From an uncultured Acidobacteriota bacterium (GTDB lineage Bacteria > Acidobacteriota > Vicinamibacteria > Vicinamibacterales > 2-12-FULL-66-21): a DNA stretch of 64,000 bases. The notes under the pieces were generated by a model. It was given only the letters and a program-made list of their open reading frames with translations, was not told where the DNA came from and did no database searches. Shown one piece after another: positions 7,742-31,552 of this stretch (position 1 is the first letter of the stretch; each line of letters begins with the position of its first letter). The DNA is taken from NCBI GenBank assembly GCA_963810305.1, contig CAWEMY010000011.1:200912-264911 (forward strand). The letters are read 5' to 3'. A program made the position numbers and the translations under genes.

Positions 7742-8048
7742 CAGCGGGACAACACAGAGGCACAGAGACACAGAATGTAAAGGATTTTTTGCGACGGAAA
7801 TGGCACGCGTGGGCCTTGACGAGTCCGACAAAATGGTCCGACAAAATAGGTTGACAAAAACAACCCTGCGGGCCTACGCTCGGCCCCCACGCCCTTACCG
7901 GAGCCCGGTTGCGTCGGTGGCGCGCCAACAGCGCCAGATCGCGTGAACGATGCCGGTTTTGGCCGCGTTGTTCGGATTCTCTGGTTGCCACAGCCAGAGG
8001 CTGAGGTCACCTGACGCGTAACGCCCACTCAAGAACGAGGAGCGAATC

Positions 8049-11999: not shown

Positions 12000-12896
12000 C
12001 TATCGCCAGTAGCCCCGTCGCGCCGTGACATCTCCGCGGCGGTTCTTCAGCTTCACTTCGAGCGGATGCCACCCCCCGGGCGGTACTTTCCTCGGCGAAT
12101 AGGTGAGGAGGTAGCGACTCTTGAAATCCGCGACGATCTTGGCGAACGTGGTTGTCAGCTCGGCCCCTCCCTTGACCTGCAGTCGCTCCCCGCCTGTCCG
12201 GTCGGCGAGATCTCCGAGAAAGTGGCCGGGGAACAGCTCGGGCTCGTCTTTGTAAAGGCTCTGCTCAGTATCATCAGGCGATGGGTGCGTCGACACGGTG
12301 TAGATCACCATGTCGCTGCGGAGCGCCGCTTCGATGACCGTGGTCGTGTCGAGCCAGCTCACCGTGTCCAAGCCATCGGTGAATACCAGCAGGATCACGC
12401 GGCCGGGCGCCTGCTCGCGCAGCACGGTGGCGGCAAACACGGCGTCGCGCAGTGCTGTCGATCCCTCGGCTCTCATTCGATCGATGGCGGCGATGATCCC
12501 CTGGCGATCACGGGTGATGGTTGCCGGCCGGTCGATCCTCTGCGAAAACGTCAGCAACGCGGCGCTGTCGTCGTCACGAAGTGCCTGCACCGCGGCGCGT
12601 GCCGCCGTTTTCAACTGGTCAAGCATCCGCCCCTTGACGCTGCTGCTGACGTCCAGTGCGAGAAACAGGGTCACGGGTACGTCTTCGACCGCAACCGCCT
12701 CGATCTGCTGGACCACCTTGCTGTCGCGCAGCTCGAAGTCGGCGGCGGTGAGACCGACGACCGGACGGCTTCCCTGCCGCACCTGCACATCGACACGAAC
12801 TGCGTCCGCAGTGGAGCGGAATCGGGCCGGCGACTGCTCCTGTGGTTCGAGACAGGTGAGCGCCGCGAGGAGGGAGAGAACGGCCAGCCGCGTCAC
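12000..12896 (-). CDS. VWFA-related acidobacterial-domain protein
   Basis: vWA MIDAS-like DVSSS, then GSTALRDA and TDGLDTVS, with a C-terminal HPLEVKLKNRRGDVTARRGYWR motif. The GTG at 12896 overlaps the upstream TGA (GTGA). Confidence 0.8.
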   Translation of the reverse strand: MTRLAVLSLLAALTCLEPQEQSPARFRSTADAVRVDVQVRQGSRPVVGLTAADFELRDSKVVQQIEAVAVEDVPVTLFLALDVSSSVKGRMLDQLKTAARAAVQALRDDDSAALLTFSQRIDRPATITRDRQGIIAAIDRMRAEGSTALRDAVFAATVLREQAPGRVILLVFTDGLDTVSWLDTTTVIEAALRSDMVIYTVSTHPSPDDTEQSLYKDEPELFPGHFLGDLADRTGGERLQVKGGAELTTTFAKIVADFKSRYLLTYSPRKVPPGGWHPLEVKLKNRRGDVTARRGYWR

Positions 12897-14074
12897 TTCC
12901 GCGCCTCCTCCCTGAGCGCCTTGAGCAGTTCCTCGGGCAGCCAGTACTGCCCGTAGCGGTATCCCCACCACGGATCCTCGACGCCGAGTAGCGCGGCGCG
13001 TTCGACGTAACCCGCCGCTTCGCGTGCGTCGCCGCGACGCTGCGCGTTGTGGGCTCGGGCAATCAGCGAGCTTTGGTGTGTCGCCGTCTCGGCGAGCAGC
13101 GCAGCTGCGTCAGCCAATCGATTCTGACGGTCGCGGATCCGGGCGAGAAACAGCCTGGCGAGATAGCGCTCGCGTGCGTCGAGGGAGCGCGCGATCAGCT
13201 TTTCGAAGAGCTCAGCCGCCGCTCCGTCATCCTTCTGCTGCATGCGAACCTGAGCCAGCCGAAGGATCCCCTCAATGTTCGACGAATCGAGGCGCAGCGC
13301 CCGTTCGAGGTACTCGCGCGCGCGCTCGAGCATCTGCTTGCGAGCGAACCGCGCCGAACTGAGCTGCCGGACAGTCCACGAGAGCGTGCCGCCCGGTTCA
13401 ATTCGTCGGGCTCCTACTTCCGGACCGAGCGTTCTGAACACCCGCAACAGCGGCTCGCCCGCCAGTGAAGCGAATGTCTCATGGAGGGTCCCGCAGGCGA
13501 CAAACAAGGGGGCATACGTCTGCTTCTCGTGACAATGCGGCGTGAGGATGTGGTACGCATCCGTGAACTCGGCCTGCGCCATCCGCTGCAGTCCGATCGC
13601 CAGGATCCACTGCGCAGCAAAGGGATCTTGCTCGCCTGTGAGTGCAGCCGCGGCTCCAAAGGCATTGGTCGCGAGGGCGAGATGGTGGTCTGCAACACTA
13701 ACCGCGTCTCGATCCATCGGCAGCCCCGGATACATGGAATTCCGCGCCACGAGTGCCGCTTCCATGTGCAGTGCGGCGAGTGAGCGAAGGAGCCGCGGTG
13801 TCCAGGGGACGACATCTGTCGGTCTTGGCGGCCAGCCGGCCGCGATCCTTTCCATCTGGGCGCGAATGGCGCCGACGGCCTTCTCCTGCTCGTCTTTCGC
13901 CATCGACCCAAGCAGCTTCAGGGCCCCGGTGAGATCGCCGGACCGATATCGTTGGGTCGCTTCGTAACTGTGCTGAATCCACTGATCGACGGCGCTCTTG
14001 TTCTGATCGAAGGGGCCAGACCGCGGCGCCGCCGGGACCAGAAGGGCCGTGATCGTGAGCAGAACGACAAGCAT
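12893..14074 (-). CDS. TPR-repeat secreted protein
   Basis: The ATG at 14074 gives a signal peptide (MLVVLLTITALLVPAAP). Helical repeat content with TPR-like AxxYLxRAL segments. Confidence 0.7.
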   Translation of the reverse strand: MLVVLLTITALLVPAAPRSGPFDQNKSAVDQWIQHSYEATQRYRSGDLTGALKLLGSMAKDEQEKAVGAIRAQMERIAAGWPPRPTDVVPWTPRLLRSLAALHMEAALVARNSMYPGLPMDRDAVSVADHHLALATNAFGAAAALTGEQDPFAAQWILAIGLQRMAQAEFTDAYHILTPHCHEKQTYAPLFVACGTLHETFASLAGEPLLRVFRTLGPEVGARRIEPGGTLSWTVRQLSSARFARKQMLERAREYLERALRLDSSNIEGILRLAQVRMQQKDDGAAAELFEKLIARSLDARERYLARLFLARIRDRQNRLADAAALLAETATHQSSLIARAHNAQRRGDAREAAGYVERAALLGVEDPWWGYRYGQYWLPEELLKALREEARK

Positions 14075-14121
14075 GCTCTTATAAGCAGCGTAGCAGACCG
14101 CTGCTGCTAGAGTACCGGCTG

Positions 14122-14565
14122 ATGAAAACCGCGTGGAACGACGCCGACTATCGGGAGCTGTGTACCAGGCTCGATCGGCTGCAGGCGAGTGCATCTCCCA
14201 AATGGGGCCGCATGACCGCGCCGCAGATGCTCTGCCATTGCACTGACGCGCTGCGAATGGTGAGCGGAGCCCTGCCGACGGCACCCAAGAACGCGCCGAT
14301 CCGGTTTCCGCCGCTGAAGCAATTGATCATTTACTGGCTGCCGTGGCCGAAGGGTGTGCCGACCGCGCCGGAGCTGCTGGCGCGAGCGCCTTCCGAGTGG
14401 CACGGAGAGCTGGTAACGCTCCGCGAGGAACTTGCCGCGCTGGTGAAACGCGGACGGTCAGGGCCGTTCGTGCCACACCCCGCATTCGGGCGGCTGACAC
14501 CACGGGCGTGGGGCGTGCTGGTCTACCGGCACCTCGATCACCATCTTCGCCAGTTCGGCGTTTAG
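14122..14565 (+). CDS. DUF1569 (DinB-like) protein
   Basis: 147 aa. WGRMTAPQMLCHCTDALR...HPAFGRLTPRAWGVLVYRHLDHHLRQFG pattern. Confidence 0.75.
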   Translation: MKTAWNDADYRELCTRLDRLQASASPKWGRMTAPQMLCHCTDALRMVSGALPTAPKNAPIRFPPLKQLIIYWLPWPKGVPTAPELLARAPSEWHGELVTLREELAALVKRGRSGPFVPHPAFGRLTPRAWGVLVYRHLDHHLRQFGV

Positions 14566-14704: not shown

Positions 14705-15340
14705 CTACGCTACGTGCAAGGCGATCACGAGAACCGGCCAGCAGACGAACGCAGCCAGAGAAAGACCGTACGGGCGGGGGATCGGAAGTGGCAGCACCAT
14801 CGCTACCGCTGTCGTCGTGAAGACGGCGATGGACGCGGCTGTGCCTGGGTTCAGCAGCAGAACAGTTGCCCAGACCAGTGCCGCGACGGGCGCGGGCAGG
14901 CCAATGAATCCGTCAGTCTGCTGGTGCGAAACGTTGTAGAACGCGAGTCTGCTGACGGCGCACGCGACGAAGAAGAACACCGACATCCACCAGAGAACTT
15001 CCAGGCCGGCTGACCTGTCCGCCGAAGCCTGGGCGAAGGCGGAAGCCGGCCTCCACCGCAACAGCAGCATGCACATGGCCGGTGCGACACCGAACGAAAC
15101 GGCATCGACAAGGCTGTCGAGTTGCTCGCCGATGGCGCGCTGATCCTCATCGCGCGCGAACAGCCGCGCGAAACGGCCGTCGAAGGTATCGAGAATGACG
15201 GCGACAGCGATCAGTGCGCCGGCGAGGCCGGGCGACCGCTGGCCGGCGAAGGCGATTGCCCCGAGAGCTGCCAGCAATGACGCATAGGTCAGCAGGTTGC
15301 CGGGATGAAAGCAACGCAGTGGAGAAGCGGACGCCGTCAT
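14705..15340 (-). CDS. CDP-alcohol phosphatidyltransferase (PssA/PgsA-like)
   Basis: DTFDGRFARLF...GEQLDSLVDAVSFG matches the D-x2-DG-x2-AR...G-x3-D-x3-D signature. Polytopic membrane protein. The ATG overlaps the upstream TGA (ATGA at 15337-15340). Confidence 0.85.
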   Translation of the reverse strand: MTASASPLRCFHPGNLLTYASLLAALGAIAFAGQRSPGLAGALIAVAVILDTFDGRFARLFARDEDQRAIGEQLDSLVDAVSFGVAPAMCMLLLRWRPASAFAQASADRSAGLEVLWWMSVFFFVACAVSRLAFYNVSHQQTDGFIGLPAPVAALVWATVLLLNPGTAASIAVFTTTAVAMVLPLPIPRPYGLSLAAFVCWPVLVIALHVA

Positions 15341-18007
15341 GCGGCGCGCTCCAGCGGAAACATCTGATACAGCGTTCGCCAGGTTCGGAGGACGCGCGGC
15401 AGGAACGCCTGGCTACGTACCCGATGGACGACCGCGTACATCGACAGCCGATTGATCAGCAGATCGTATAGAGCACTGCGAAATCCCTCGAGCCACACCG
15501 TTCGGTCAATCACGCCCCCGTGCTGCCGCTCCAGCGCGGTGCGATGTCGATCGATCCACGGAGCGACCCCTTCCAGCGTCGTATCGGCCGGCAGAACGAA
15601 GCAAAGAAACTCCGCGAGGTCACGCTGCGGCGCTCCGATTGTCGCAAGCTCCCAATCGTAGGCGCACAAGCGTCGCATCGCTGCCGCGCAGGCACACGTT
15701 GCGCGGATTGAAATCGTTGTGGATCAGCGTGCGCGGGCCACACTCCAGCGCCGGCCACCACTCTTCAACTCGCGTCAGCAGGCGCCGCTGTATGGCGATG
15801 ATGTCCGTGTCGGACCACGAGGAGAACAGCGGTGCGGCATGATCCGCGAGCGCGCTCCAGAGAGGCGACATCTCCGCCATGCCGCTGGTTGACGGAACAG
15901 ATCCGATCCACGGCCTGGCGCGCAACTCCGCCTCACGGCCGATCCAGATGGCGTGAAGCTCCGCGAGTCCATCGACCGCTTTCGCTATTTGCGACGGTCG
16001 CCATGTCGGATGCGCCGAGACGTCCGCCGCGACGACATCGTCGACGTATTCCAGAGCCGCGATCCAGGTGTGCGTTCCTTCGTCGGCGATGGATCCGAGC
16101 AGGGCAGGCGAGTGTCTACGGAAGCGCGGATCCTGTTGACGGTAGATCTCGATTTCCCGCTCATGTGATGCAGCGAATCCAATTCGGTCGCTGAACCGGC
16201 GATATTGCCGGCCGAGGGTTGGATCCACCAGCTCAGCGAGCGCTTCTCCGACCGCGATGACGTCTGTGTCGCGGGCCTTCACCTTCGTCATCACATCCCG
16301 GCGGCGCCCCTCGCCGTCGGTCAGCCGTACGCGGAAGAGCCCGGTCGTTCTTCCAGATCGCCACGCCGTGAGCTCGCTGATGATGCTGTGGTCTGAACCC
16401 GCGCCGAGGATCTCCACTTTCGAGATCGGCGTACGCAGAAGGCGGGAGAAGAAGGCGCGGTCAAGGGTGAGCGGCTCGACGGCGCGTTCAACAGTCGCTC
16501 TTGCATGCGGTGGGTCAGGCAGGTCCCCGGCGGCGCGGAACGCCGCAAAATACTTCTCGAGTAACGGTGCGTCGAGTGCGACGGCGAGGTGTCCCGTCCG
16601 GCGGAGGAGCGCTCGTGTCGCGGCGCCGGTTGCGTGCACACGCCTCCGTTCCTCGTACAACTCGGGTCAGTGTCAGCCCTCCTGTGCCGGCGGGACGTTC
16701 GAGGAAGAACGAGCGGAGCGGACGAAGCGGATGCGCGGCGCTCGTGGTGCTCAACGGCCGTGTCTCGCGCTCGAGCTGACGCAGCCACTCGTGGTACGAC
16801 ACCAGCCGGACGTCGTACCCGTACATCCTCATCCACAGCACGCATTCACGCCAGTGGCGTGGGCGATCGTGGCCGAGATGAAACACAGGTCCGCGCGCGC
16901 GTGACAGGCGGAGAATGGCGGCGGCCACGCGGTCTACCGGCTCGCAATCCAGATTCCAGTCCAGGTCCGGTGCGGTCCCCATCGCCACGCATCCGCGCAC
17001 CAGCGCCGAGATCAGGTCGTCGCGGTTGAACGCTCCATCAACGCTGTGTCCGGAGATCAGCGCCGGCCGATAGATGCGCACCGGAAGCCCACGGCCACCC
17101 GCCTGCCTCACCAGCGCCTCCGCCACGATCTTCGTTTGCGCGTATCCGAGATGCACACCGCGCAGTGCGGGCAGACTGTCGAGCGTCTCGTCCACGACAC
17201 GCGGGCCTTCCGTCGAGTAACACACCGACAGACTCGATATGAAATGGAAGGGAATTCCACGCCGGCACGCCAGCCGCAGAAGCTCCAGAGTCCCCAGGAC
17301 GTTTGCGCTCCTCAAGGCGCTGTATGTGAACACCCAGTTCACCGCCGCCCCGCAGTGAAGGACCGCGTCGACTTCGCTCGCGAGCTGTTCGAATCGTGCG
17401 TCGCTCAGGCCGAGGCGGGAGTGGCTGAGATCTCCCTCGAGCAACTCGATTCGAGGTTGTTGGGCCGGCTGAAGCCGGCCCCTACCGAGACCGGCGTGAT
17501 GGGCCGGCTGAAGCCGGCCCCTACCGGAGTGCGTAGAGGCCGGCTTTAGCCGGCCTGACTTGCGGCCTCACCAGACACACCAGGGTCGCCGACGTCGTCT
17601 CGAGAAGTTCCTGAATCAGCGCCTGACCGAGAAATCCCGTCCCACCGGTGAGCAGGATCTTTCGCGCGGAACGGAGATCCGTCGTTCGTGCGCTCCGTTT
17701 GGACGTACGAACGTCCGCCGGCAGGACGGCGTCGGCGAACATCTGATCGAAGGGATCTTCGTGCGCGCGGGTACGCGATTCCCTCGCGCATCAGACGCGC
17801 CGCCAGCGTCCTGGCGTCCGCGCAATCGGCGAGCACGTCCGCCGGCAGATCGCAACCGAGCTCCGCCTCCAGCGCCGCGGCAAGTTCGATCGTCGCAAGC
17901 GAGTCGAGCCCGAGAAGGTCGAACGGCGTTGCCGGGTCGATTTGCACGTCGGACCGAAGGCACCGTGCGGCCACGGCGGTGATCGTGGATTCGAGTTGTT
18001 CGGTCAT
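15337..18007 (-). pseudogene. ACP - thioester reductase - APH-like phosphotransferase fusion, read in several frames (frameshifts near 17775, 16660 and 15685, plus a REP insertion at 17462-17556). Either a genuine pseudogene or indel errors.
   Basis: ACP motif LGLDSL. Reductase N-terminus ILLTGGTGFLGQALIQELL, then HCGAAVNW and a YAQTK catalytic region. Reductase tail PLRSFFLERP / LYEERRRVHATGA...DAPLLEKYF. It runs without a stop into a kinase-like domain ending HNDFNPRNV / YDWELATIG. Confidence 0.75.
17462..17556. repeat. REP-like elements (family B): two direct copies plus one inverted copy, inside the reductase coding region
   Basis: gggccggctgaagccggcccctacc at 17462-17486 and 17501-17525. 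The inverted copy gtagaggccggctttagccggcct is at 17533-17556. Confidence 0.85.
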
Positions 18008-19722
18008 GACGTGGGTACCCCAGTTCGGGAGGGATCACTCCAGAAGGCGAGCAGCTGGAACTCACCCGCACGAAACGCCGCGCGGCAGAGGAAGCGTTGG
18101 AGCTTTCCGCTGGTAGTCTTCGGCAGGCTTCCCGGCGGCACGAGCGCGACGGCGCACGGAGACACCTGGTGCCGCTCGGCGACGGAACGCCTGACCGACG
18201 CGATGGCCTGCTGGAGGTCGCCGTCGGATTCCGACCGGGCGGGATCGGTCTCGGCGACCAGCGCAATGCATTCCTCTCCGTCGCGATCGACGGCAAAAGC
18301 CGCGCAGCAGCCCGGACGAACGGCTGGATGCGCTTGCTCCGCGGTCGCCTCGAGGTCCTGGGGATAATGCTTCACGCCGCGGACTATGAGGACGTCCTTG
18401 ATCCGCCCGGTGACGAACAGCCTGCCATCGACGATGCATCCAAGATCGCCGGTGCGCAGGTAGGGACCGTCGCCGGAGTCCGAGATCACCGCGCCGAAGA
18501 CCTGCGCCGTGTCCTCGGGCTTGTGCCAGTAGCCAGAGGCAACGCTCGGGCTGTTCACCCAGATTTCGCCGATGTCGCCGTCCGCCACGACGACGCGAGA
18601 TTCGGGATCGACGATGCGGATCGCGTGCCCGTCATCGATGACACCGGAGCTGACGAGGGAACGCCCGTCCGGCGTATCGACGAAGACCGGCCCATCCTCT
18701 GGACCGCTCGAAACCAGCAAGGTCGATTCGGCGAGACCGTAAGAAGGTCGCAGGGCTTCCCAGCGGAAGCCGCACGGAGCGAAGGTGCGATGAAAGTGTT
18801 CGAGGGTCGATCGGCGGACCGGCTCGGAGCCGTTGTACGCCAGGCGCCAGGTCCGCAGGTCGAGCGCCGAGCGATCTTCGTCACTGACGCGCCGCGTGCA
18901 CAGGTCATAGGCGAAGTTGGGTCCGCCGCTGTGGGTGGCCCCGTAACGCGAGATCGCCTGCAGCCAGCGCGCGGGTCTCTGGAGGAACGCCGCCGGCGAC
19001 ATCAGGTACGAGGGATAGCCGCTGAATACGGGCTGCAGCACCCCGTTGATGAGCCCCATATCGTGATTCACGGGAAGCCACGACACCCCGGCGCTCGTCG
19101 AGTCGTACCTCCCGAGAGCCGCGCCGCGGGCGAGGTTATCCAGCAGGTTCGCGTGTGTGACGACGACTCCGCGGGGTATCGCAGTGGAACCTGACGTGTA
19201 CTGCAGCAGCGCCACGCTGTCGGCGCCTGCGGACGGCGGACGCCAACTGTCCGCCGCTTCGTCTGGCACCTCTTCGACGTTGACCCAGCGAAGCCCCGAC
19301 AGTTCAGGCACGAGCGCCTGGAGCAGAGGCGCGCGCTCGTGAACAGCCGTTGACGACAGGACGAGCGTGACCCCGGCGTCCGCGATCATGCCTCGCAGAC
19401 GCGTGCTCGACCGGTCAGCGCGCGCCGAGGACGGCGGGTAGGTCGGGATCGCGATCGCCCCCGCGTAGAGGACCCCGAAAAACGCCGGAACGAAATCCAC
19501 TGACGGGGGCAGCAGGATCAGCACTCGCGCACCCGGCTCACTGTGCGAGGCGAGAACCGCCCCGATCGCTCGGCTGCGGGCATCTATCCGGGCCCACGTC
19601 AATGAGGCGTGTTCGCGCTCCCCAGCTTCGAGGAACGTGAACGCGGTATCGCCCCCCTGTGCCGCCGCCCGGTCGCGCAGCAGCTCGATCATCGATACCG
19701 GACCGTGTGTAGTCACGCGCAT
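18004..19722 (-). CDS. Fatty acyl-AMP ligase (FAAL-type adenylating enzyme)
   Basis: LQYTSGSTAIPRGVVVTH (A3 core), YLRTGDLG, GRIKDVLIVRG and KTTSGKLQR. Starts at the ATG at 19722. Intact, 572 aa. Its stop overlaps the ACP start (ATGA at 18004-18007). Confidence 0.9.
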   Translation of the reverse strand: MRVTTHGPVSMIELLRDRAAAQGGDTAFTFLEAGEREHASLTWARIDARSRAIGAVLASHSEPGARVLILLPPSVDFVPAFFGVLYAGAIAIPTYPPSSARADRSSTRLRGMIADAGVTLVLSSTAVHERAPLLQALVPELSGLRWVNVEEVPDEAADSWRPPSAGADSVALLQYTSGSTAIPRGVVVTHANLLDNLARGAALGRYDSTSAGVSWLPVNHDMGLINGVLQPVFSGYPSYLMSPAAFLQRPARWLQAISRYGATHSGGPNFAYDLCTRRVSDEDRSALDLRTWRLAYNGSEPVRRSTLEHFHRTFAPCGFRWEALRPSYGLAESTLLVSSGPEDGPVFVDTPDGRSLVSSGVIDDGHAIRIVDPESRVVVADGDIGEIWVNSPSVASGYWHKPEDTAQVFGAVISDSGDGPYLRTGDLGCIVDGRLFVTGRIKDVLIVRGVKHYPQDLEATAEQAHPAVRPGCCAAFAVDRDGEECIALVAETDPARSESDGDLQQAIASVRRSVAERHQVSPCAVALVPPGSLPKTTSGKLQRFLCRAAFRAGEFQLLAFWSDPSRTGVPTS

Positions 19723-20402
19723 CGCAGCTCCTGGTGTGTCCGCACAAAAAGCGCACGAACTTTTTCCTTGTTCTCGACGACGTCGGTCTCTTTCCAGTCG
19801 GTGGTGTGGATCGGCGGGCAGCACGTAGACGTCCACGATGCCGCGGCCTGCCCGATATCCGAGACCGGGATCGACATCGGTCGGGATGTGGAAATACATC
19901 GGCACGATTGGCGCGCGCAGAACGGTCGCGAGGTGGAATGCACCCTTGTTGAAGTGCCCGATGTCCCCGGTCGTGATCCGGCCCCCTTCGGGGCTCAGGT
20001 AGACCGATTCGCCCGTCCGCCGCAAGACCTCGCCTGCCCTGGTGAAGATGCGTCTGCGTTCGTCCGGCCGATCCTGCGGGACGGTGAAGAACGTGCCCAT
20101 CATCGACGCGATGAAGCCGAGCGGGATCCACTTGCGCAGGAAGCCACTCAGGAAGAAGCGGGTGTTCGGCAGACCCAGGGCAACGAGGATGAAGAGGTCC
20201 AGCGTGGACGTGTGGTTCGACACGTAGACGGTCTGGGTGCGCGGAAATGCCGTGTGTCTTCGCCGCCTGGGAGCGGCAGCGCTGCTGATGAACCCGCATG
20301 CGGACGCCGTAGCAGGCGCAGAATGCAGCGGGCGAGCAGGGTGGCGATGCGCGCGTACAGCCGCCGCGCGCGGAAGAGCGTCACGACGCCGAGCGGCAAC
20401 AT
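19713..20402 (-). pseudogene. PlsC-type lysophospholipid acyltransferase, read in at least three frames (shifts near 20250 and at the CCC run near 19816)
   Basis: NHTSTLD (H-x4-D) and PEGGR motifs lie in the frame of the 806-aa ORF. The conserved tail PPIHTTDWKETDVVENKEKVRALF with its own stop at 19713 is in another frame. The plausible N-terminus MLPLGVVTLFRARRLYARIATLL is in a third frame. Confidence 0.7.
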
Positions 20403-20460
20403 GCGCGACGGCCGTCAGCGTCATCAGCAGCGAGGCTGATGACGCCCAGTGCGATCGCCT

Positions 20461-21474
20461 TCACTGCGCCCTCCTGCAGATCACCGTCTGCATTGCCAGG
20501 TTCAGTCGTCTTTCGAACAGCAGCAGCGGCAGTAGCAGGATCTGTCCAACGAAGTAGGGGAAGATCGCCTTGTCCAGGTTCAGGCCACGCCCTTTGAGCA
20601 GGCGGAATGCGGCGCCCGTGAACAGGTAGAAGTACGCGGGGAAGGCGCCGTACGGCAGGTAGTCGACTACCTCGAGGCCGGACTTGCGCACGGCGCGCAG
20701 CAATGTGTCGCGGTCGAAAAGCACGGTGTGTTGCGGCGCCTGCAGACCCGGCCAGCGATTGCCGAACCAGCGGAACGTCCGGCTGTCGAGGCGCGGCACT
20801 TCAATCACGAGCCGACCCTCTGGTTTCAACACGCGCCGCGCCGTCTCGAGACTGCGCAGCGGATCGTAGTCATGCTCCAGGAAGTGCCACATCGTTACCA
20901 GGTCGAACCGGTCCGGCGCGAGATCCGCCTCGTAGAAGAGGCCGCAGTGAAACTCGACTTGCGCCAGTGAGGAGGCAGCGCTGAGGTCCTTGAAATCCAC
21001 TCCGCACACGTGTGCACCCGTCGTGCGGCGCAGCCGCTCGAGGAAGGTGCCCACCGCACACCCGACGTCGAGGACCTGACTCGAAGGTCCCAGCGACACG
21101 TAGCGGGAAACGATCCGATCCTTGGCGGCATCGAGCTTGTTCATCGCGCGCTCGAAGAGCGGCGTCAGCAATCCCCAATTGCGCTTCTTGCGATGCGCGA
21201 TGTAGGTGTCGTCGTAGTACCCAGCGATGTGTCGCAGCGACACGCGTGGATTCTGATAAGCGAGATCGCATCGCGTGCAGCGCACGAACTGAAACTCCCC
21301 GGGCGTGCCCCCGAGATCGTCCTGGGCGGTTACGAACGGGCGTGTCTCAGTCGCTCCACACAAGTAGCAGGAGACCCGTTCGAAGAAGTCGGCCGGCCGT
21401 CGAACCGACTGACCTGAGGCGGCCTCCAGGCCGGCGTACGAGTCCCGATCGACGACCGCGTCGATGACGTTCAT
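20461..21474 (-). CDS. Class I SAM-dependent methyltransferase with an N-terminal Cys4 zinc ribbon
   Basis: CYLCG...CTRCDLAY, then the SAM motif VLDVGCAVGTF and the WHFLEHDYDP motif. The ATG at 21474 overlaps the upstream TGA. Confidence 0.85.
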   Translation of the reverse strand: MNVIDAVVDRDSYAGLEAASGQSVRRPADFFERVSCYLCGATETRPFVTAQDDLGGTPGEFQFVRCTRCDLAYQNPRVSLRHIAGYYDDTYIAHRKKRNWGLLTPLFERAMNKLDAAKDRIVSRYVSLGPSSQVLDVGCAVGTFLERLRRTTGAHVCGVDFKDLSAASSLAQVEFHCGLFYEADLAPDRFDLVTMWHFLEHDYDPLRSLETARRVLKPEGRLVIEVPRLDSRTFRWFGNRWPGLQAPQHTVLFDRDTLLRAVRKSGLEVVDYLPYGAFPAYFYLFTGAAFRLLKGRGLNLDKAIFPYFVGQILLLPLLLFERRLNLAMQTVICRRAQ

Positions 21475-22037
21475 GAATGTCCTCCAACAAGCCGGGCAAG
21501 CGGACTGGCGGGGTCGTGCCATGCCTCGTAGACGCACACGATGAGATAGAGCACCATCGCGACAGAGAGAATCTGAACGGGCGCTTCGAGCACGCGCGAG
21601 CCCGCCACGATCCCCACCATCGCCGGGTACTTTGCGAGGAGCAGCTGCTCCCCTGCGACGCTGCGGCGGGTTCGGGCCAGGTACCAGACCCCCAGAGCGG
21701 CGGTCAGAACGGCAAGCACGCCGACGGCGATTCCACTCGGGTCCCGCCATATCGCGAGGCAGATATTCAGCACGGCGAGAGCACCGCACAAGGCCACGAT
21801 CTGCGTCCCTTCGCCGTCACGCACGAGCACCCGGCCCGGGTGCTCGACACGATCGCGGCCGCGGTCGGCCAGGTCGTCCCACATTCGGAACTGCGCCAGC
21901 AACAGCAGCGCGACCGCGAAGTCGATGGCGAACGACGTCCAGGACGCCGGTGGCACGATGACGGCCGCGGCAATCAGCAGCGCCAACGGCAGGAAGAGGC
22001 GGAGCCGGAAGCGTTCGCGGAGGTAGCTCACGACCAT
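21471..22037 (-). CDS. Small polytopic membrane protein with one Asp-rich motif (WDDLADRGRD; UbiA-like?)
   Basis: 188 aa from the ATG at 22037, with five or six hydrophobic helices. ATGA overlaps at both ends. Confidence 0.6.
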   Translation of the reverse strand: MVVSYLRERFRLRLFLPLALLIAAAVIVPPASWTSFAIDFAVALLLLAQFRMWDDLADRGRDRVEHPGRVLVRDGEGTQIVALCGALAVLNICLAIWRDPSGIAVGVLAVLTAALGVWYLARTRRSVAGEQLLLAKYPAMVGIVAGSRVLEAPVQILSVAMVLYLIVCVYEAWHDPASPLARLVGGHS

Positions 22038-24577
22038 CACCGCGCCTCCACATGGACGATCCCCTGGTTGCCGTCGACGACGACACGCGCGCCATGGGGA
22101 ATGAGGCGGGTGGCGTCCTTCACCCCGACGACAGAGGGGATGCCGAACTCGCGCGCGATGATCGCGCCGTGGGAAAGCATTCCGCCTCTCTCGATGACCA
22201 GACCCGATATGAGCGGAAAGATTGGCGCCCAGCCAGGATCGGTCTGGCGCGTCACCAGGACGTCCCCTTTGGCAAGCCGGTGCGACTCGGTGACGTCGAG
22301 CAGGATCGCGGCGTTCGCCGTCGTTCTTCCTCCGCATGCTCCGACGCCGGCGAGCTGCGCTTCTGGTTGTTCGATCCCCCTCGCACCGGGATGCGCTTCG
22401 GGCCGGAAGTATTCGCCGACCGGAATCGCCATCGAGTCAGGCGGCGTGGTCTTACTCAGTTCGGCGTGAGCGGCCTTGGTGATGTCGATGATTCGCGCCA
22501 GATGGTCCGGAAACATCGCGCCACCGGCAGCGAGCAGTTCGAGCTCTTCCGCGGTCAAATAGAAGACATCATCGCGGTGTGTTACGCGCCCCGTGGCGGC
22601 GAGCCGCTCGCCGATCTCGAGAGCGACGCGGCGCAGCCGGCTGTACAAGAGCGCCTGCTTCAACCGAGCGCGTTCCCGCAACTGAATCGACCGCTGTGTC
22701 CAGCGAAGGATCGTCGCGACGATCAGCCTTTGCCTCCAGCCGAGCGCAGCCAGCACTGCGTGGGTCTGCTCGAGGCGCTCGGACTTCTGTCGCTTCAATA
22801 AGTCGACAGGCGAGTCGCCGTCCAGTGCCGCATATGCCTTGAGCAGCTCGATGACGGGCGCGGGCTCTTCCTGGAAGCTTGGGACGGTGAGCATCAGTTC
22901 CGCGGAGCAGCGAAACCCCCAGTGCTCCAGATAGTCCTCGAGTGCCCCGCGGAAGGTGGCGAATCTGCTCGTCGGTGGAGAGCGCGGCGAGCACCTCATC
23001 GGGTCGTTGATTCCGAATCAGTGCAGTCAGCGCCTCGTCGCGGCGGATCATCCGCGACAGCTCCCACAGCCGCACGGCAGGAACGCCGCTCACCAGGTCA
23101 GGCAGCGCTTTGAGAAGGGAGTTGTGGAGTGACTGCTGGTCGCGGCCGGGGAACGAATGCGTCAGCAGCCGCTGAAGCGCTGCGTAACACACCATGGACG
23201 CCGCGTCAGCGAGTGACGCGTTCTTCCAGCGATGGCATCGTATGTCGATGAAGCCGCGGAAATCGTCCAGAAGCTCGGATTGGGTCTTCTGCTTCAGTCG
23301 CTCGGGACGAGTCTCGGCCGCGTAGTCATCGACTGTCTGTTCGAACTGTCGCACGCGGCTCGTCAGGAAAAGGTATTGCCAGGTGGTCTTTGCCGCGATC
23401 CACGCGAGCTCGAAGGCCTGGCGCACCCGGTAGGCCGCACCAGCGCGTGGGGTCGTGGTCTCCTCGGCCCCGACGAACTGGTTGAACGATGCGGCGAGCA
23501 GGTCTCCGAACGGCGCTGACCGGAGCACCGAGTGGATGCTCGTCAGGTTGTAGTACATCCGCGCGCCGTGGACGCCGATGATCTGGCGCAACGCCGGCTC
23601 CATCAGGCGCAGGCGGCGCTCAGAAATGCCGAAGGCGCTGCCCAGATTGCGGAAGTAGTGGTAGTAGCCGGCGCGCGCGATCGAATAGAGGAGCGGCGAA
23701 ATCGGCTGCGGGAAGTTCTCGTTGACGTTGGCGTTGGACCAGAAGCAGGTGCGTGGGTCCGTGGGCCCCTGGGTCCGGGCGGCATTGGATCCGTGGGTCG
23801 TAATCGGGCGAGACTGGACGATCCACAGCTTTCCAGCGGCGTCGATCGTCCACTCGATGTCCTGCGGGCAGCCGAACGCCGCTTCGATGTCGAGTGCGAG
23901 AGCCGCAAGCTCGGCGATCTTGACGTCGTTCAGCAGGACCGCCTCCGCAACCGGCACATCGTCCGGCGCCGCCAGGCGCACCCATCGTAGAGGCCGTCGC
24001 TGTCAGCCGGCCGGCTTCAGCCGGCCTGTCAGCCGGCCTGTCAATCGCAACCCGACCCGGATTCACCGCGCCCGAGACGAGCGCTTCTCCCATCCCTCCG
24101 CAGTACTCGACGAGCATCTGCTGCGGGTCGGTCGGCGACACCGTGAAGAGGACACCCGACAGCACCGCCTCCACCTGCCGCTGAACGATGATCCCCATCC
24201 CGTCGAGTGCCTTGCCACGCGCCTTCTGATAGGCGAGGACACGCGGTGACTGCTCGCGAGGCCCACACTCGTTCGATCGCTGAGCGGAGCAACGGCTCGG
24301 TGGTCACGTCGGCAACGGAATCGAGCTGCCCGGCGAATGAGGCATCGGCCGAGTCTTCGCCGATCGCCGAGCTGCGGACGATTACGGGCGCAGAGAGAAG
24401 CGGCATCAGCTCTTCGAACTCGATCGCGCCGGCGACGAGCACCTCGTTCGGGATGACAATCCCGTCGGGCACCCGCGCTCCCGCCGCCATGAGCCGGGCA
24501 AGGTTCGCCGCCTTGCCACCGCAGCCGGTGAGCTCTGTCGCTTCGGAGAGCGGCACAAGGGAAGTGAGGACGTTCAT
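22037..24577 (-). pseudogene. PEP-utilising phosphotransferase with rifampin-phosphotransferase-like architecture (PPDK_N ATP-grasp + central domain + C-terminal swivel His domain). Frame changes near 24250 and 22965, and a REP insertion at 23987-24043.
   Basis: N-terminus GGKAANLARL...VRSSAIGEDSADASFAGQLDS. Then SPRVLAYQKARG...GIIVQRQVEAVLSGVLFT and PQDIEWTID...LWIVQSRPIT. C-terminus TRQTDPGWAPIF...GGMLSHGAIIAREFGIPSVVG. The pieces lie in different frames. Confidence 0.75.
23987..24043. repeat. REP-like element (family B, with partial duplications) inside the PPDK_N coding region
   Basis: gtagaggccgtcgctgtcagccggccggcttcagccggcctgtcagccggcctgtca. The reading frame differs on its two sides. 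Confidence 0.8.
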
Positions 24578-25143
24578 GCCGGGCGCGCCTTCAATCCGAG
24601 TTGGAACATCACCACGCTGAAGACCCAGTGGATGGCGGGTCCGACAATCAGAACGACCGCCCACGTCTGCCACGGCATCGGCACGAGGACAGTCATGGCA
24701 AGCAGCATCCCGATCCCTGAGTCCAGACGGTCGGCCAGGAACTGAATCGCGGATGAAACGCGCTTGAACGGCGCAGCCCCGGGGACGATATCGAGCTGCC
24801 GCTTGACGAACGAGTTCGGCAGCTCGCCGGCCATGAATCCGAAGCCTGCCGCCGCACCTAGCGCCGCGAACCATCCAGTCGAGAGGTCCCACAAGCCGGC
24901 TGACGCGGGCGTGATCGCAGCCAGCAGCGCGAACGAGGCGGCCGCGGCTGGCACCATCACCACGAACCCGCGGATGGTCTTGTTCGCGCCGAAGAGCCTC
25001 CGCCGGCGAAAGCGCAGCCCGCCGTCGAGCGGCAGCGCGAACGCCCTCGACATCGGAGACGCGAACCACGCCGTCTGCGCAACGCCGGCGAGGGTGAACG
25101 CCAGCAGGATGAACGCGCCGCAGGCAGTCGCATCGAGCGGCAT
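24574..25143 (-). CDS. CarS-like (CDP-archaeol synthase / DUF46 family) CTP-dependent cytidylyltransferase
   Basis: 189 aa and polytopic. GANKTIRGF, GELPNSFVKRQL and LADRLDS line up with the archaeal CarS motifs G-D-G-K-T-W-R-G-F, G-D-L-x2-S-F-I-K-R-R and V-D-Q-L as I recall them. Confidence 0.65.
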   Translation of the reverse strand: MPLDATACGAFILLAFTLAGVAQTAWFASPMSRAFALPLDGGLRFRRRRLFGANKTIRGFVVMVPAAAASFALLAAITPASAGLWDLSTGWFAALGAAAGFGFMAGELPNSFVKRQLDIVPGAAPFKRVSSAIQFLADRLDSGIGMLLAMTVLVPMPWQTWAVVLIVGPAIHWVFSVVMFQLGLKARPA

Positions 25144-25150
25144 GGCGGTG

Positions 25151-26111
25151 CTAGACGTCAAAGCCGGTTTCCAATCGATTCTGGAACAGCAGGACGTCGC
25201 CGGGGATGCGCTTCGCCCGCGAGATCCACTGCCACCAGCCGATCTCGTTTTCAGGCGAGTACGGAATCCGGCGCAGGTGGTAGCCGGGCACGAATGGATA
25301 CATGTGATGCAGCTCGTGCGCGTCGAAATGAAGAACGAAGGCGGACGCCAGCGCGCGGCAGCCGGAGCGAGCGGGTAAATGGTTCCTGCTCGATCGCGGG
25401 GAACGGCTTGACCGCCGCTCCGTGACTGACGTTCTGAGGCACGTGGGTGTGCTGACTCAGAAGGAGCAGATCCTCCATCGCGAGGCTGAGCAGCAGCGCA
25501 AGGCCGCAGGCGCGAAGCATGGCTGCCGGCCCGAGGAGCGCCGTGACGACGGCATACAACGCGACGAGGGTCAGCACGTCCCGGACAAGCGCGCGCCGGT
25601 CGGACGGTTTCGGAAACATGCGCAGCAGCCGCGCGAGGTGCCAGTAGTTGCTCACGCGGTAGATGATGGAGAACAGCGGGATCCAGAGCCGCCAGCAGGT
25701 ATTGACCAGCGTCCGCTCGGCGCGCCCGAGCGGACGCGGCACCAGCGATTCGGTCGTCGGATCGAGGTCCTGCCAGCCCGTCCACTTGTGATGTCGTCCG
25801 TGGACGCGCGTCCAGGCGTGGTATGGGATCAGCGAGAAAGCGGCGGCGACCCGTCCTGCTGCCGCATGCCATCGGCGGGTGCGAAACAGCGTTTCATGCC
25901 CGCATTCGTGCAGGATCACGAACCACTGGACGAGCATGACGGCAAGGAGGGCCTGACCGCACAGCCACAGGACCCATCCGCCGGCGAACGACAGCACCAG
26001 GCCGAGCACCGTGCCCGCCGAGGCGATCGCGATCACCCGCAGCCCGGCCGCATTCGTCGCGCGGAGGTGAGTCAGGTCGGCCGGAAAAGGTGCCCCCTCG
26101 CTGCGTCCCAT
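25151..26111 (-). pseudogene. Membrane fatty-acid desaturase-family enzyme with one frameshift near 25345
   Basis: His boxes HECGH and HGRHH are in the ORF frame. The third box, HELHH (ALASAFVLHFDAHELHHMYPFVPGYHL), and the stop TAG at 25151 are in the +1 frame. Confidence 0.8.
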
Positions 26112-31487: not shown

Positions 31488-31552
31488 GGACGGTAGAGGC
31501 CGGCGGACGGTAGAGGCCGGCGGACTGGTAGAGGCCGGCTTTAGCCGGCCTC
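31488..31552. repeat. REP-like family B: two truncated heads plus one complete hairpin (possible bidirectional terminator)
   Basis: ggacggtagaggccggc appears twice, followed by ggactggtagaggccggctttagccggcctc. It sits between two convergent stop codons (31481 and 31556). Confidence 0.85.

Follow-up and report, generated by a model that had tools for sequence, protein, structure and literature searches.

Analysis of a 64,000-nucleotide stretch of DNA from an uncultured Acidobacteriota bacterium (contig CAWEMY010000011.1), here referred to as the window, revealed a gene on the minus strand that encodes one enzyme composed of an acyl carrier domain (ACP), a thioester reductase (TR) and an APH/choline-kinase-like kinase. 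The ATG start codon of this gene overlaps the stop codon of the upstream fatty acyl-AMP ligase (FAAL) gene (ATGA), and further genes lie on the same strand. The features of the locus are as follows.

14705..15340, minus strand: CDP-alcohol phosphatidyltransferase, PssA/archaetidylserine-synthase-like, downstream partner
15337..18007, minus strand: whole ACP-TR-kinase gene, 888 amino acids (aa) with four single extra bases ignored
15340..16516, minus strand: APH/choline-kinase-like kinase domain (Pfam APH and predicted fold)
15667..15667: extra base 4, within the kinase domain, after the catalytic loop and before the DWE motif
16517..16573, minus strand: reductase C-terminal tail DAPLLEKYFAAFRAAGDLP, which runs into the linker
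16541..17661, minus strand: terminal thioester reductase domain (Pfam NAD_binding_4, TIGR01746)
16667..16667: extra base 3, frame change from the TR to its tail; GLTLPELYEERRR becomes GLTLT|RVV
17445..17565, minus strand: variable loop of the reductase, from strand beta2 to strand beta3, encoded by three REP-like hairpins GTAGGGGCCGGCTTCAGCCGGCCC
17563..17563: extra base 2, inside the TR, just upstream of the REP-derived loop
17774..17774: extra base 1, frame change from the ACP to the TR; lacking in the contigs, both DNA and RNA, of related strains
17792..17983, minus strand: acyl carrier domain (PP-binding), 46.7 bits, residues 9-72
18004..19722, minus strand: FAAL, upstream partner
19716..20424, minus strand: LPLAT/PlsC-type acyltransferase, upstream partner
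20461..21396, minus strand: zinc-ribbon and class I SAM methyltransferase
21477..22037, minus strand: short membrane protein, weakly UbiA-like, motif FRxWDDLADRxRDRxxHPxRVL
22049..24562, minus strand: rifampicin-phosphotransferase/PEP-synthase-like (Rph-like) dikinase (PPDK_N ... PEP-utilizers)
24577..25137, minus strand: CarS-like (CDP-archaeol-synthase family) membrane protein
25251..26111, minus strand: membrane fatty-acid desaturase family protein

The domains PP-binding, NAD_binding_4 and APH were detected by Pfam in the separate open reading frame (ORF) pieces as well as in the read-through protein. As the initial annotation had described, the reductase tail LDAPLLEKYFAAFRAAGDLP (16573..16517) passes within a single minus-strand ORF (16660..15620) directly into the APH-like domain, which bears the catalytic loop HNDFNPRN (residues 762 to 769, 15721..15698, minus strand). 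After a frame change near position 15667, the ORF at 15678..15337 (minus strand) takes over and contains the metal-binding YDWELATIG (15660..15634, minus strand; YDWE being residues 782 to 785). That annotation had counted one frameshift and a kinase domain of about 330 aa; however, the interval 18007..15337 contains four frame changes (near 17774, 17563, 16667 and 15667), which are probably artifacts, and the domain spans about 390 aa in the structure model. Removal of the four bases yields a single 888-aa ORF with no in-frame stops and with all catalytic residues intact. The full-length model was predicted with a pLDDT of 89.7 and a pTM of 0.89, and Foldseek returned no PDB chain that spans both of its halves.

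At the N terminus, the phosphopantetheine serine is Ser36 (codon 17902..17900, minus strand) in GLDSLATIEL, and the GLDS motif with this serine is nearly invariant among the full-length homologues. The reductase half scored 266.5 bits against TIGR01746 (cutoff of 213.35; residues 116 to 488) and 194 bits against PF07993 (NAD_binding_4; cutoff of 20.1). It carries the nucleotide-binding TGGTGFLG (residues 120 to 127, 17649..17626, minus strand) and the catalytic YAQTK (residues 288 to 292, 17144..17130, minus strand), and 36 full-length homologues show no variation at T120, G121, G124, G127, R147, Y288 and K292. The best Foldseek match of this half was the R domain of MxaA (4w4t/4u7w; E value of 6e-29, TM score of 0.91, 36 to 37% identity), and the PCP-R part of a carboxylic acid reductase (CAR; 5msv) was also among the matches. 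MxaA is a four-electron, alcohol-forming reductase. Two-electron (aldehyde-forming) and four-electron (alcohol-forming) reductases are indistinguishable by sequence, and we infer an alcohol as the TR product from the similarity to MxaA together with the existence of a sister architecture in which an HMG-CoA reductase (HMGR) takes the place of the TR.

The model of the kinase half reached a pLDDT of 92.9, and all of its best 50 PDB matches in Foldseek were APH, macrolide, choline or homoserine kinases with a probability of 1.0. By its predicted structure, the C-terminal domain thus has the protein-kinase-like (APH/ChoK) fold assumed by the initial annotation. In line with this, PF01636 was matched at residues 609 to 806 with 45.2 bits (gathering threshold of 23.2), and H762, D764, N769, D783, W784 and E785 are invariant in the full-length homologues. 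K574 and E617 are invariant in the same 36 homologues and, judged by their positions in a modeled strand (568 to 576) and helix (613 to 621), are the putative beta3 Lys and alphaC Glu. The best PDB match by sequence profile was ACAD11 (8v3v; E value of 1e-6), which covered profile positions 210 to 287 only, and the top Foldseek match, 3dxp, had a TM score of only 0.42 to 0.48. The HYDxK catalytic motif and an Arg in place of the beta3 Lys are hallmarks of the ACAD10/11-type kinases (PMC13596139); the kinase described here shares their DWE metal-binding motif (D783, W784 and E785) but has HNDFN in place of HYDxK and Lys574 in place of the Arg. The nearest characterized kinases (ACAD11, 3dxp and ACAD10) phosphorylate lipid alcohols or hydroxyacyl thioesters (PMC13596139, PMC12440821). 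The substrates of these closest relatives are alkylglycerols or CoA-bound hydroxyacyl groups and not plain fatty alcohols.

Four disruptions within 2.7 kb, together with a repeat element in the coding region, could mean that the gene is a true pseudogene in this strain, with genuine mutations behind both the frameshifts and the REP insertion. Illumina DNA contigs (X1 to X4) are exactly one base shorter at all four sites, and metatranscriptome contigs (X14, X19 and X23) also lack the extra bases; these contigs derive from related strains that are only 90 to 99% identical to the window, and not from reads of its own strain, which leaves some room for the pseudogene. The cluster as a whole carries about 10 frame shifts per 10.5 kb, mostly +1 steps, and seven of the eight resolved shifts are due to a surplus C in the plus strand, a pattern with a technical look. 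Since the neighboring Rph-like and LPLAT genes are hit by the same +1 insertions, the frame breaks are most likely a consensus artifact. Sister long-read contigs (L001 to L003) contain frameshifts of their own that differ from those of the window, and the preserved catalytic residues and stop-free repaired frame likewise argue against decay. The REP-like hairpin array (17458-17556) within the TR coding sequence is translated in frame and without a stop as ...GRLKPA..GRLQPA..GRLQPA...; this strain-variable segment is in frame in locus L002, too, and forms a low-confidence surface loop in the model. We therefore consider a pseudogene very improbable; the four breaks probably represent consensus or single-base insertion errors and not gene decay. 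Similar caution is due with public gene calls annotated as an "SDR family oxidoreductase" of 650 to 690 aa or as an "aminoglycoside phosphotransferase" or "HMG-CoA reductase" of about 400 aa, which often represent pieces of this one protein produced by frameshifts.

Uninterrupted ACP-TR-kinase ORFs of about 890 to 930 aa occur in Acidobacteriota, Gemmatimonadota, Planctomycetota and Gammaproteobacteria. The fusion, which the initial annotation had read from an interrupted copy, is a continuous ORF in 11 genomes from at least five phyla, one of which encodes FAAL-ACP-TR-kinase as one polypeptide, and it is also seen in 37 full-length representatives (866 to 927 aa); a stop codon with a separate start between reductase and kinase was not found in the orthologues. 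Among 141 representatives, 80 were TR-kinase fusions, 24 were HMGR-kinase fusions and 37 were kinase-only entries, nearly all of them short fragments. The fusion is thus real and recurrent. It could be argued that reductase and kinase are separate, unrelated genes and that the kinase is an aminoglycoside or macrolide resistance APH joined to the reductase only by frameshift: kinase-only database entries are numerous, and in the closest contig (L002) the region is called as two overlapping ORFs of 461 and 433 aa. However, the split in L002 stems from a +1 insertion in that contig, and the neighborhood is one of lipid biosynthesis. Because the ORF is continuous in 11 genomes and the kinase is joined to a reductase in 104 of the 141 representatives, this explanation is effectively refuted. 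The initial annotation had not recognized the arrangement from earlier descriptions; our literature searches indeed found no published description or characterization of it, but among generically named database sequences it is common.

The HMGR-kinase fusions came from Moraxellaceae, Aestuariivivens and Kordia (Bacteroidota thus being among the hosts), Streptomyces tendae, Myxococcota, Entotheonella, Bdellovibrionales and Thermodesulfobacteriota. In these proteins an HMG-CoA reductase domain (323 to 390 bits) is followed by the same kinase in the same polypeptide, and in all fusions the kinase is C-terminal to the releasing reductase. The HMGR domain is unrelated to the SDR-type TR, and both are expected to convert a thioester to a primary alcohol. 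The order of thioester, primary alcohol and phosphate recalls HMG-CoA reductase and mevalonate kinase. However, mevalonate kinase has the GHMP fold and the kinase described here the APH fold, and lipid genes are found near the HMGR-kinase gene instead of other mevalonate pathway genes. Domain fusion indicates a common pathway and does not by itself establish consecutive catalytic steps. Nevertheless, the joining of two unrelated thioester-to-alcohol reductases to one kinase family supports the view that the kinase would act on the alcohol made next door. Phosphorylation of the alcohol in cis, as the initial annotation had suggested, may thus be considered to have strong comparative support from the two reductase types and the likeness to MxaA.

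The genes that surround the fusion are conserved as well. Of 43 genome loci, 32 have a CarS-like gene, an Rph-like gene or both beside the kinase, and the HMGR-type clusters share the LPLAT, CarS-like, Rph-like, methyltransferase and desaturase genes and an acyl-activating enzyme with the TR-type clusters. In the window, the Rph-like gene is broken up by three +1 shifts, and the LPLAT gene, a gene of its own in relatives, is joined to the FAAL ORF through extra bases. The CDP-alcohol phosphatidyltransferase stayed below the equivalog cutoffs in all scores. This conserved set of lipid genes points to a widespread bacterial lipid gene cluster, putatively for an alkyl or ether phospholipid pathway.

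We favor, at a probability of roughly 55%, the reading that the gene encodes an intact natural tridomain enzyme whose frame breaks are insertion errors and that the cluster leads from a fatty acid to a polar lipid. The upstream FAAL would adenylate a fatty acid and transfer it onto the ACP, the TR would use NADPH for a four-electron reduction that frees a primary fatty alcohol, and the fused kinase would convert this alcohol with ATP to an alkyl phosphate ahead of its diffusion. A polar membrane lipid may then be built from this phosphate by the conserved neighbors, namely the Rph-like dikinase, CarS-like CTP enzyme, UbiA-like protein, LPLAT and PssA-like enzyme. To our knowledge, free long-chain alkyl phosphates are not common bacterial metabolites. 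Because the same kinase is fused to two unrelated reductases, the hypothesis is unusually sharp and easy to test. If it is true, a kinase attached to an alcohol-releasing reductase represents a new way to off-load carrier-bound acyl chains, as phosphate esters primed for CDP activation, and identifies a family of bacterial fatty-alcohol or lipid-alcohol kinases.

Alternatively, the kinase might act on a later lipid alcohol, for example by converting 1-O-alkylglycerol to 1-alkyl-glycerol-3-phosphate, and the free fatty alcohol would not be its substrate. The LPLAT would then acylate the product, the CarS-like enzyme would activate it with CDP and the PssA-like enzyme would add the head group, and these are canonical substrate types for such enzymes. 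The kinase domain of ACAD10 and its prokaryotic homologues, which share the DWE motif, phosphorylate 1-O-alkylglycerol (PMC13596139), and the nearest characterized relatives by profile and by Foldseek are of the ACAD10/11 type. On the other hand, the kinase is probably no orthologue of ACAD10, as it matches only in the core and departs from that type in its catalytic motif and beta3 residue (PMC13596139), and we recognized no enzyme for ether formation, such as AGPS or Ger, in the cluster. Direct handover of the product is also the simpler account of a strict fusion to two alcohol-forming reductases, and we regard a later alcohol as possible but unlikely.

It is also conceivable that the kinase phosphorylates a hydroxyl of the carrier-bound acyl chain before its release from ACP or CoA, the phosphate serving as a leaving group or tag and not as the beginning of a phospholipid head group. 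ACAD10/11 and LvaA kinases act on 4-hydroxyacyl-CoA, and such kinases are the top sequence relatives (PMC12440821, PMC11342911); moreover, a phosphopantetheine arm, of ACP or of CoA, holds the substrate in both fusion types, and the cluster includes an enzyme of the desaturase/hydroxylase family. Yet it contains no partner eliminase or ACAD domain, and the releasing reductase always precedes the kinase. The CarS-like and CDP-alcohol phosphatidyltransferase genes suggest, in turn, that a phosphomonoester is built upon and not eliminated, and phosphorylation on the carrier therefore appears quite improbable.

The cluster may, in a rather unlikely extension of these ideas, represent an undescribed way for bacteria to make alkyl phospholipids, of ether type or free of glycerol, with an activated fatty alcohol as the starting point. 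The alcohol would come from FAAL, ACP and TR, or in other phyla from an acyl-CoA ligase and the HMGR-like domain; the fused kinase would yield an alkyl phosphate and the Rph-like dikinase the diphosphate, with which the UbiA-like membrane protein could alkylate an acceptor such as glycerol phosphate. Acylation by the LPLAT and the action of the CarS-like and PssA-like enzymes would complete the lipid, as in archaeal lipid synthesis. Such a route, if true, would mirror the archaeal ether-lipid pathway on the basis of fatty acids and would be a candidate for the ether-bond chemistry of Acidobacteria and their relatives.

Compared by described architecture, one of the closest known systems is ElbD of the Myxococcus xanthus elb operon, in which an adenylation domain that activates fatty acids is combined with an ACP, a FAR-like NAD(P)H reductase and an AGPAT/LPLAT (PMC9131029), the same lipid-pathway building blocks as here. 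Clusters of the elb type are reported from Acidobacteriota subdivision 6, some of them near CDP-alcohol phosphatidyltransferases (bioRxiv 10.64898/2026.06.23.733905). However, ElbD is a single R-A-ACP-AT polypeptide without a kinase, whereas the cluster in the window distributes these functions over three genes (LPLAT, FAAL and ACP-TR-kinase), places the reductase after the ACP and adds the kinase. The elb operon as described also lacks the Rph-like, CarS-like and UbiA-like partners. With the terminal R domains of PKS/NRPS and CARs (MxaA, the Streptomyces coelicolor PKS TR and CAR PCP-R), the enzyme shares the carrier-R didomain layout, the TGxxGxxG motif and the Tyr-Lys catalytic pair, but a kinase follows R in none of them, and the reductase in the window bears the REP-derived variable loop in addition. 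ACAD10/ACAD11 and 3dxp resemble the kinase half in the APH/protein-kinase-like fold, the DWE motif and the missing activation loop; ACAD10/ACAD11 are likewise fused to a lipid-processing domain and phosphorylate a lipid hydroxyl, as the present kinase putatively does, but their partner is an acyl-CoA dehydrogenase or HAD phosphatase and not a reductase, and the match (E value of 1e-6) is confined to the catalytic core, with HNDFNPRN for HYDxK and a beta3 Lys for Arg.

The logic of phosphate, CDP derivative and head group is common to several CDP routes, namely archaeal CarS with archaetidylserine synthase, CdsA with PssA, and the Kennedy pathway, which consists of a kinase, a cytidylyltransferase and a CDP-alcohol phosphotransferase. 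The cluster parallels them with a ChoK/APH-fold kinase, a CarS-family membrane protein and a PssA/archaetidylserine-synthase-like transferase. These routes start from acylated or alkylated glycerol phosphate, whereas the cluster presumably starts with a reductase-kinase acting on a fatty acid.

The cluster is present in many phyla of soil and sea that contain ether lipids and unusual lipids, some of which serve as paleoclimate proxies. Cultured carriers include Arhodomonas sp. AD133, Kordia jejudonensis, Aestuariivivens insulae and Streptomyces tendae JCM 4610, and genetics and lipidomics are therefore feasible.

The initial annotation held that the reductase reads straight into a kinase domain, and this was confirmed: the minus-strand ORF 16660..15620 carries the reductase tail and the APH-like domain in the same frame with no stop between them. 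The HNDFNPRN motif and, past a frame change, the YDWELATIG motif were both located. The single frameshift also claimed did not hold up, as the interval contains four frame changes, near 17774, 17563, 16667 and 15667. The thioester reductase (TR) domain, which follows the carrier domain, is divided between two minus-strand ORFs. The landmarks of the gene are as follows:

18007, minus strand: start ATG of the acyl carrier domain, in overlap with the stop codon of the adenylating enzyme upstream
16660..15620, minus strand: ORF leading from the reductase tail LDAPLLEKYFAAFRAAGDLP directly into the APH-like domain and ending with HNDFNPRN
15678..15337, minus strand: ORF with YDWELATIG, running to the stop

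Comparison with related sequences pointed to errors as the most likely source of the four frame changes. Logan contigs from four soil/rhizosphere DNA runs, representing strains 90-99% identical to the window and not the window's own strain, are each one base shorter at 15667/8, 16667, 17563/4 and 17774, and contigs of three metatranscriptomes have one base fewer at three sites (15667/8, 16667/8 and 17774). The metatranscriptome contigs also revealed transcription of the gene in relatives, reductase-linker junction included. Deletion of the four bases results in one 888-aa ORF with no internal stops, and the catalytic residues of carrier, reductase and kinase are all intact. The problem extends to the neighborhood, with approximately 10 insertions within 10.5 kb and a majority of +1 steps among the frame changes; the gene for the PlsC-type acyltransferase (LPLAT) contains two or three frame changes and that for the rifampicin-phosphotransferase/PEP-synthase-like (Rph-like) dikinase three. 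The affected features are listed here:

15667, 16667, 17563, 17774, 19815, 20404, 24253 and 30513: extra bases found only in the window, all insertions, none of the eight in a homopolymer
22049-24562, minus strand: Rph-like gene of ~900 aa in four pieces, with +1 shifts near 24254, 24036 and 22962
18004-20424, minus strand: 806-aa apparent fusion of LPLAT and fatty acyl-AMP ligase (FAAL), an artefact in which the extra base at 19815 joins two genes

The extra base at 24253 in the Rph-like gene was confirmed by related contigs, and in relatives LPLAT and FAAL are distinct genes with an overlap of a few bases. The N-terminus of LPLAT in the window contains more +1 shifts, at 20404 and 20247-20313. 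Among the eight insertions that could be resolved, seven add a C on the plus strand, and they lie outside homopolymers. Collectively, the eight window-only bases look like a systematic consensus error. Natural decay would not give insertions alone, and gene-specific pseudogenisation was judged unlikely. That the window copy is a real pseudogene is improbable; we keep a slim chance for it because the comparison contigs come from relatives. Programmed frameshifting was rejected, as the four sites lack a common slippery context, relatives read through and the same +1 insertions occur in neighboring genes. The sister contigs L001 to L003, long-read-style assemblies of relatives carrying the same gene, have frameshifts of their own that differ from those of the window; L002, for instance, has an extra C 12 nt downstream of the window's 16667 site (L002 ~7975-7985). 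L004 (NCBI MAG GCA_035575695.1, ~7940-7965) lacks two bases within the AAVNWVF motif, which divides the gene into a 246-aa and a 662-aa call.

The fusion is also found without frameshifts. Among species-representative genomes, those with uninterrupted ACP-TR-kinase ORFs (889-945 aa) belong to Vicinamibacterales, Gemmatimonadaceae, Planctomycetota (Pirellulaceae among them) and, as an isolate, Arhodomonas sp. AD133; a Burkholderiales MAG contains a reductase-kinase ORF, and one genome encodes FAAL-ACP-TR-kinase in a single protein of 1404 aa. The Vicinamibacterales chromosome OZ244838.1 is one carrier of an intact orthologue. A kinase-domain search returned 288 relatives, many labelled NAD_binding_4 + APH, and many gene calls of 650-690 aa begin mid-reductase because of local frameshifts. 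Scanning 1.84 billion representatives yielded 462 clusters at E <= 1e-30; the best 150 of these provided 141 new representatives, comprising 80 TR-kinase, 24 HMG-CoA-reductase-kinase (HMGR-kinase) and 37 kinase-only architectures. All but one of the kinase-only representatives (36/37) are <=506 aa long and therefore probably fragments. The continuous ORFs in genomes, together with the fused representatives, rule out that reductase and kinase are separate genes. Judged from these sequences, the TR-kinase fusion is genuine and of long standing, and the two domains are almost always joined.

The PP-binding carrier domain spans residues 9-72 of the corrected protein and includes Ser36. The reductase scored 194 bits with NAD_binding_4 and 266.5 bits with TIGR01746, which is over the curated cut-off, and this half matched the terminal R domain of MxaA (myxalamid synthetase) with a TM of 0.91 and an identity of 36-37%, followed by the S. 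coelicolor PKS TR and the CAR PCP-R didomain. MxaA itself reduces its substrate to an alcohol. The reductase of the fusion is a bona fide terminal TR. The C-terminal half, proposed to be protein-kinase-like, indeed belongs to the APH/ChoK superfamily: it scored 45.2 bits with APH, and its model (pLDDT 92.9) had exclusively APH/choline-kinase-type top PDB fold matches at probability 1.0, the first being 3dxp. When solved structures were ranked by sequence profile, the ACAD11 kinase domain came first (E = 1e-6), with a match confined to the catalytic core. Across 36 full-length homologues, TGxxGxxG, R147, Y288 and K292 are invariant in the reductase, as are K574, E617, H762, D764, N769, D783, W784 and E785 in the kinase. 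NCBIfam lacks a model for the kinase half, and no PDB structure was found to span both halves.

Closer inspection of the reductase coding sequence revealed a triple REP-like hairpin (17458-17556) that the initial annotation had overlooked:

17445-17565, minus strand: three REP-like hairpins (GTAGGGGCCGGCTTCAGCCGGCCC and a variant) within the reductase coding sequence

Within the Rossmann fold, the array is flanked by the CLVRP and GDL strands. Without the extra base at 17563, it is in frame and free of stops (...KSGRLKPASTHSGRGRLQPAHHAGLGRGRLQPAQQ...) and is translated as a GRLQPA-type repeat loop. The closest relative, L002, carries two hairpins at the same place, also in frame; in L001, L003 and L004, a short ordinary loop without hairpins takes their place. 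The segment varies in length among related strains. In the full-length model, pLDDT falls below 50 solely in this segment (residues 152-161 and 167-169). The REP-derived segment is, according to the model, a variable surface loop that is tolerated and not disruptive. A fourth REP-like copy is intergenic (31528-31551).

The fusion is housed in a cluster that recurs, besides the window, in four metagenomic loci and in many genome loci, with these components:

fatty-acid desaturase family protein; CarS-like (CDP-archaeol-synthase family) protein; ~900-aa Rph-like dikinase; short membrane protein; zinc-ribbon methyltransferase; LPLAT; FAAL; ACP-TR-kinase; PssA/archaetidylserine-synthase-like CDP-alcohol phosphatidyltransferase
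21477-22037, minus strand: the short membrane protein, ~186 aa, kept across the cluster (also L015 7389-8348 and L044 13983-14711, two other genome loci)

Of 43 genome loci from several phyla, HMGR-type clusters included, 32 have a CarS-like and/or Rph-like gene <=10 kb from the kinase. This lipid context ruled out a resistance-type APH. The short membrane protein is marked by the motif FRxWDDLxDRxRDRxxHPxRVL ... LLxKYP ... YExxHD. It showed a weak, sub-threshold match to Pfam UbiA in 8/11 members, over the first 60% of the profile only, and in Moraxellaceae the corresponding protein is longer and scores close to the UbiA threshold; a profile search against the PDB gave no useful match, and the UbiA-like assignment is tentative. 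Downstream of the cluster, positions 12000-14565 encode a VWA-domain protein, a TPR protein and a DinB/DUF1569-like gene, in an order conserved in L001, L002 and L004.

What the sequences show is the domain set with its active sites intact, the fusion itself and the cluster around it. We propose that FAAL would load a fatty acid onto the ACP, the TR would reduce the bound chain to an alcohol and the fused kinase would phosphorylate this alcohol in cis, whereupon the dikinase, CarS-like, UbiA-like, LPLAT and CDP-alcohol transferase proteins would convert the lipid phosphate into a polar lipid. Phosphorylation of the released alcohol in cis had been suggested initially, and this interpretation is supported. 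We put the probability that the kinase directly phosphorylates the reductase product at about 0.55. The fusion resides in a conserved multi-phylum lipid cluster, and the biochemical prediction is sharp and testable.

The most informative comparison is with a sister architecture, in which the same kinase family lies C-terminal to an HMG-CoA-reductase domain (265-390 bits) in place of the SDR-type reductase. It was found in Moraxellaceae (Gammaproteobacteria), Aestuariivivens and Kordia (Bacteroidota), Streptomyces tendae, Myxococcota, Entotheonella, Bdellovibrionales and Thermodesulfobacteriota, at the following loci:

L015 8360-11095; L044 8708-11032; L031 8819-11158: HMGR-kinase
L010, L013, L018, L025, L030, L035, L041: further HMGR-kinase loci

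HMG-CoA reductase and SDR thioester reductases are unrelated but perform the same net chemistry, the four-electron reduction of a thioester to a primary alcohol. That one kinase was joined to two analogous reductases strongly argues that it acts on the reductase product. A lipid alcohol arising later, such as 1-O-alkylglycerol, appears rather unlikely as the substrate; its phosphorylation is a reported activity of the ACAD10 kinase domain and bacterial homologues (PMC13596139). Still less likely is a hydroxyl on the carrier-bound chain, for which the 4-hydroxyacyl-CoA kinase activity of ACAD10/11 (PMC12440821, PMC11342911) provides a precedent. The kinase is not an ACAD10/11 orthologue, since it has HNDFN and a beta3 Lys where ACAD10/11 have HYDxK and a beta3 Arg.

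The closest known system is ElbD, the myxobacterial ether-lipid enzyme, which shares reductase, activating, ACP and acyltransferase domains but is a single polypeptide with another domain order and no kinase (PMC9131029); in architecture, ACP-TR-kinase does not fit ElbD. Elb-like clusters have been reported in Acidobacteriota subdivision 6 (bioRxiv 10.64898/2026.06.23.733905). The arrangement had not been recognized as a described one, and the literature covered, which leaves out most subscription journals, likewise yielded no account of TR-APH or HMGR-APH fusions, whether looked for as fusions, under alkyl-phosphate or fatty-alcohol kinases, or under bacterial CarS clusters. It is a recurrent variant of reductive chain release, visible in databases and uncharacterized.

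Identity clustering of the kinase domains gave 32% between the TR- and HMGR-architectures versus 35-38% inside each; the two are largely separate groups, suggesting one swap or a few. HMGR-type clusters contain an acyl-CoA-type ligase instead of FAAL and ACP. A true mevalonate pathway was rejected for these fusions, as other mevalonate genes are absent nearby and the lipid neighbors match those of the TR-type cluster. Some kinase-only fragments are named 'HMG-CoA reductase' in public annotations, a label probably transferred from HMGR-kinase fusions. In S. tendae JCM 4610 (L031 7162-11945), a GH3-family adenylating enzyme and a P-loop NMP-kinase-like (thymidylate-kinase-like) protein flank HMGR-kinase, and CarS-like and Rph-like genes are missing from the locus; this different, smaller module may still have a phosphate or diphosphate ester as its product.
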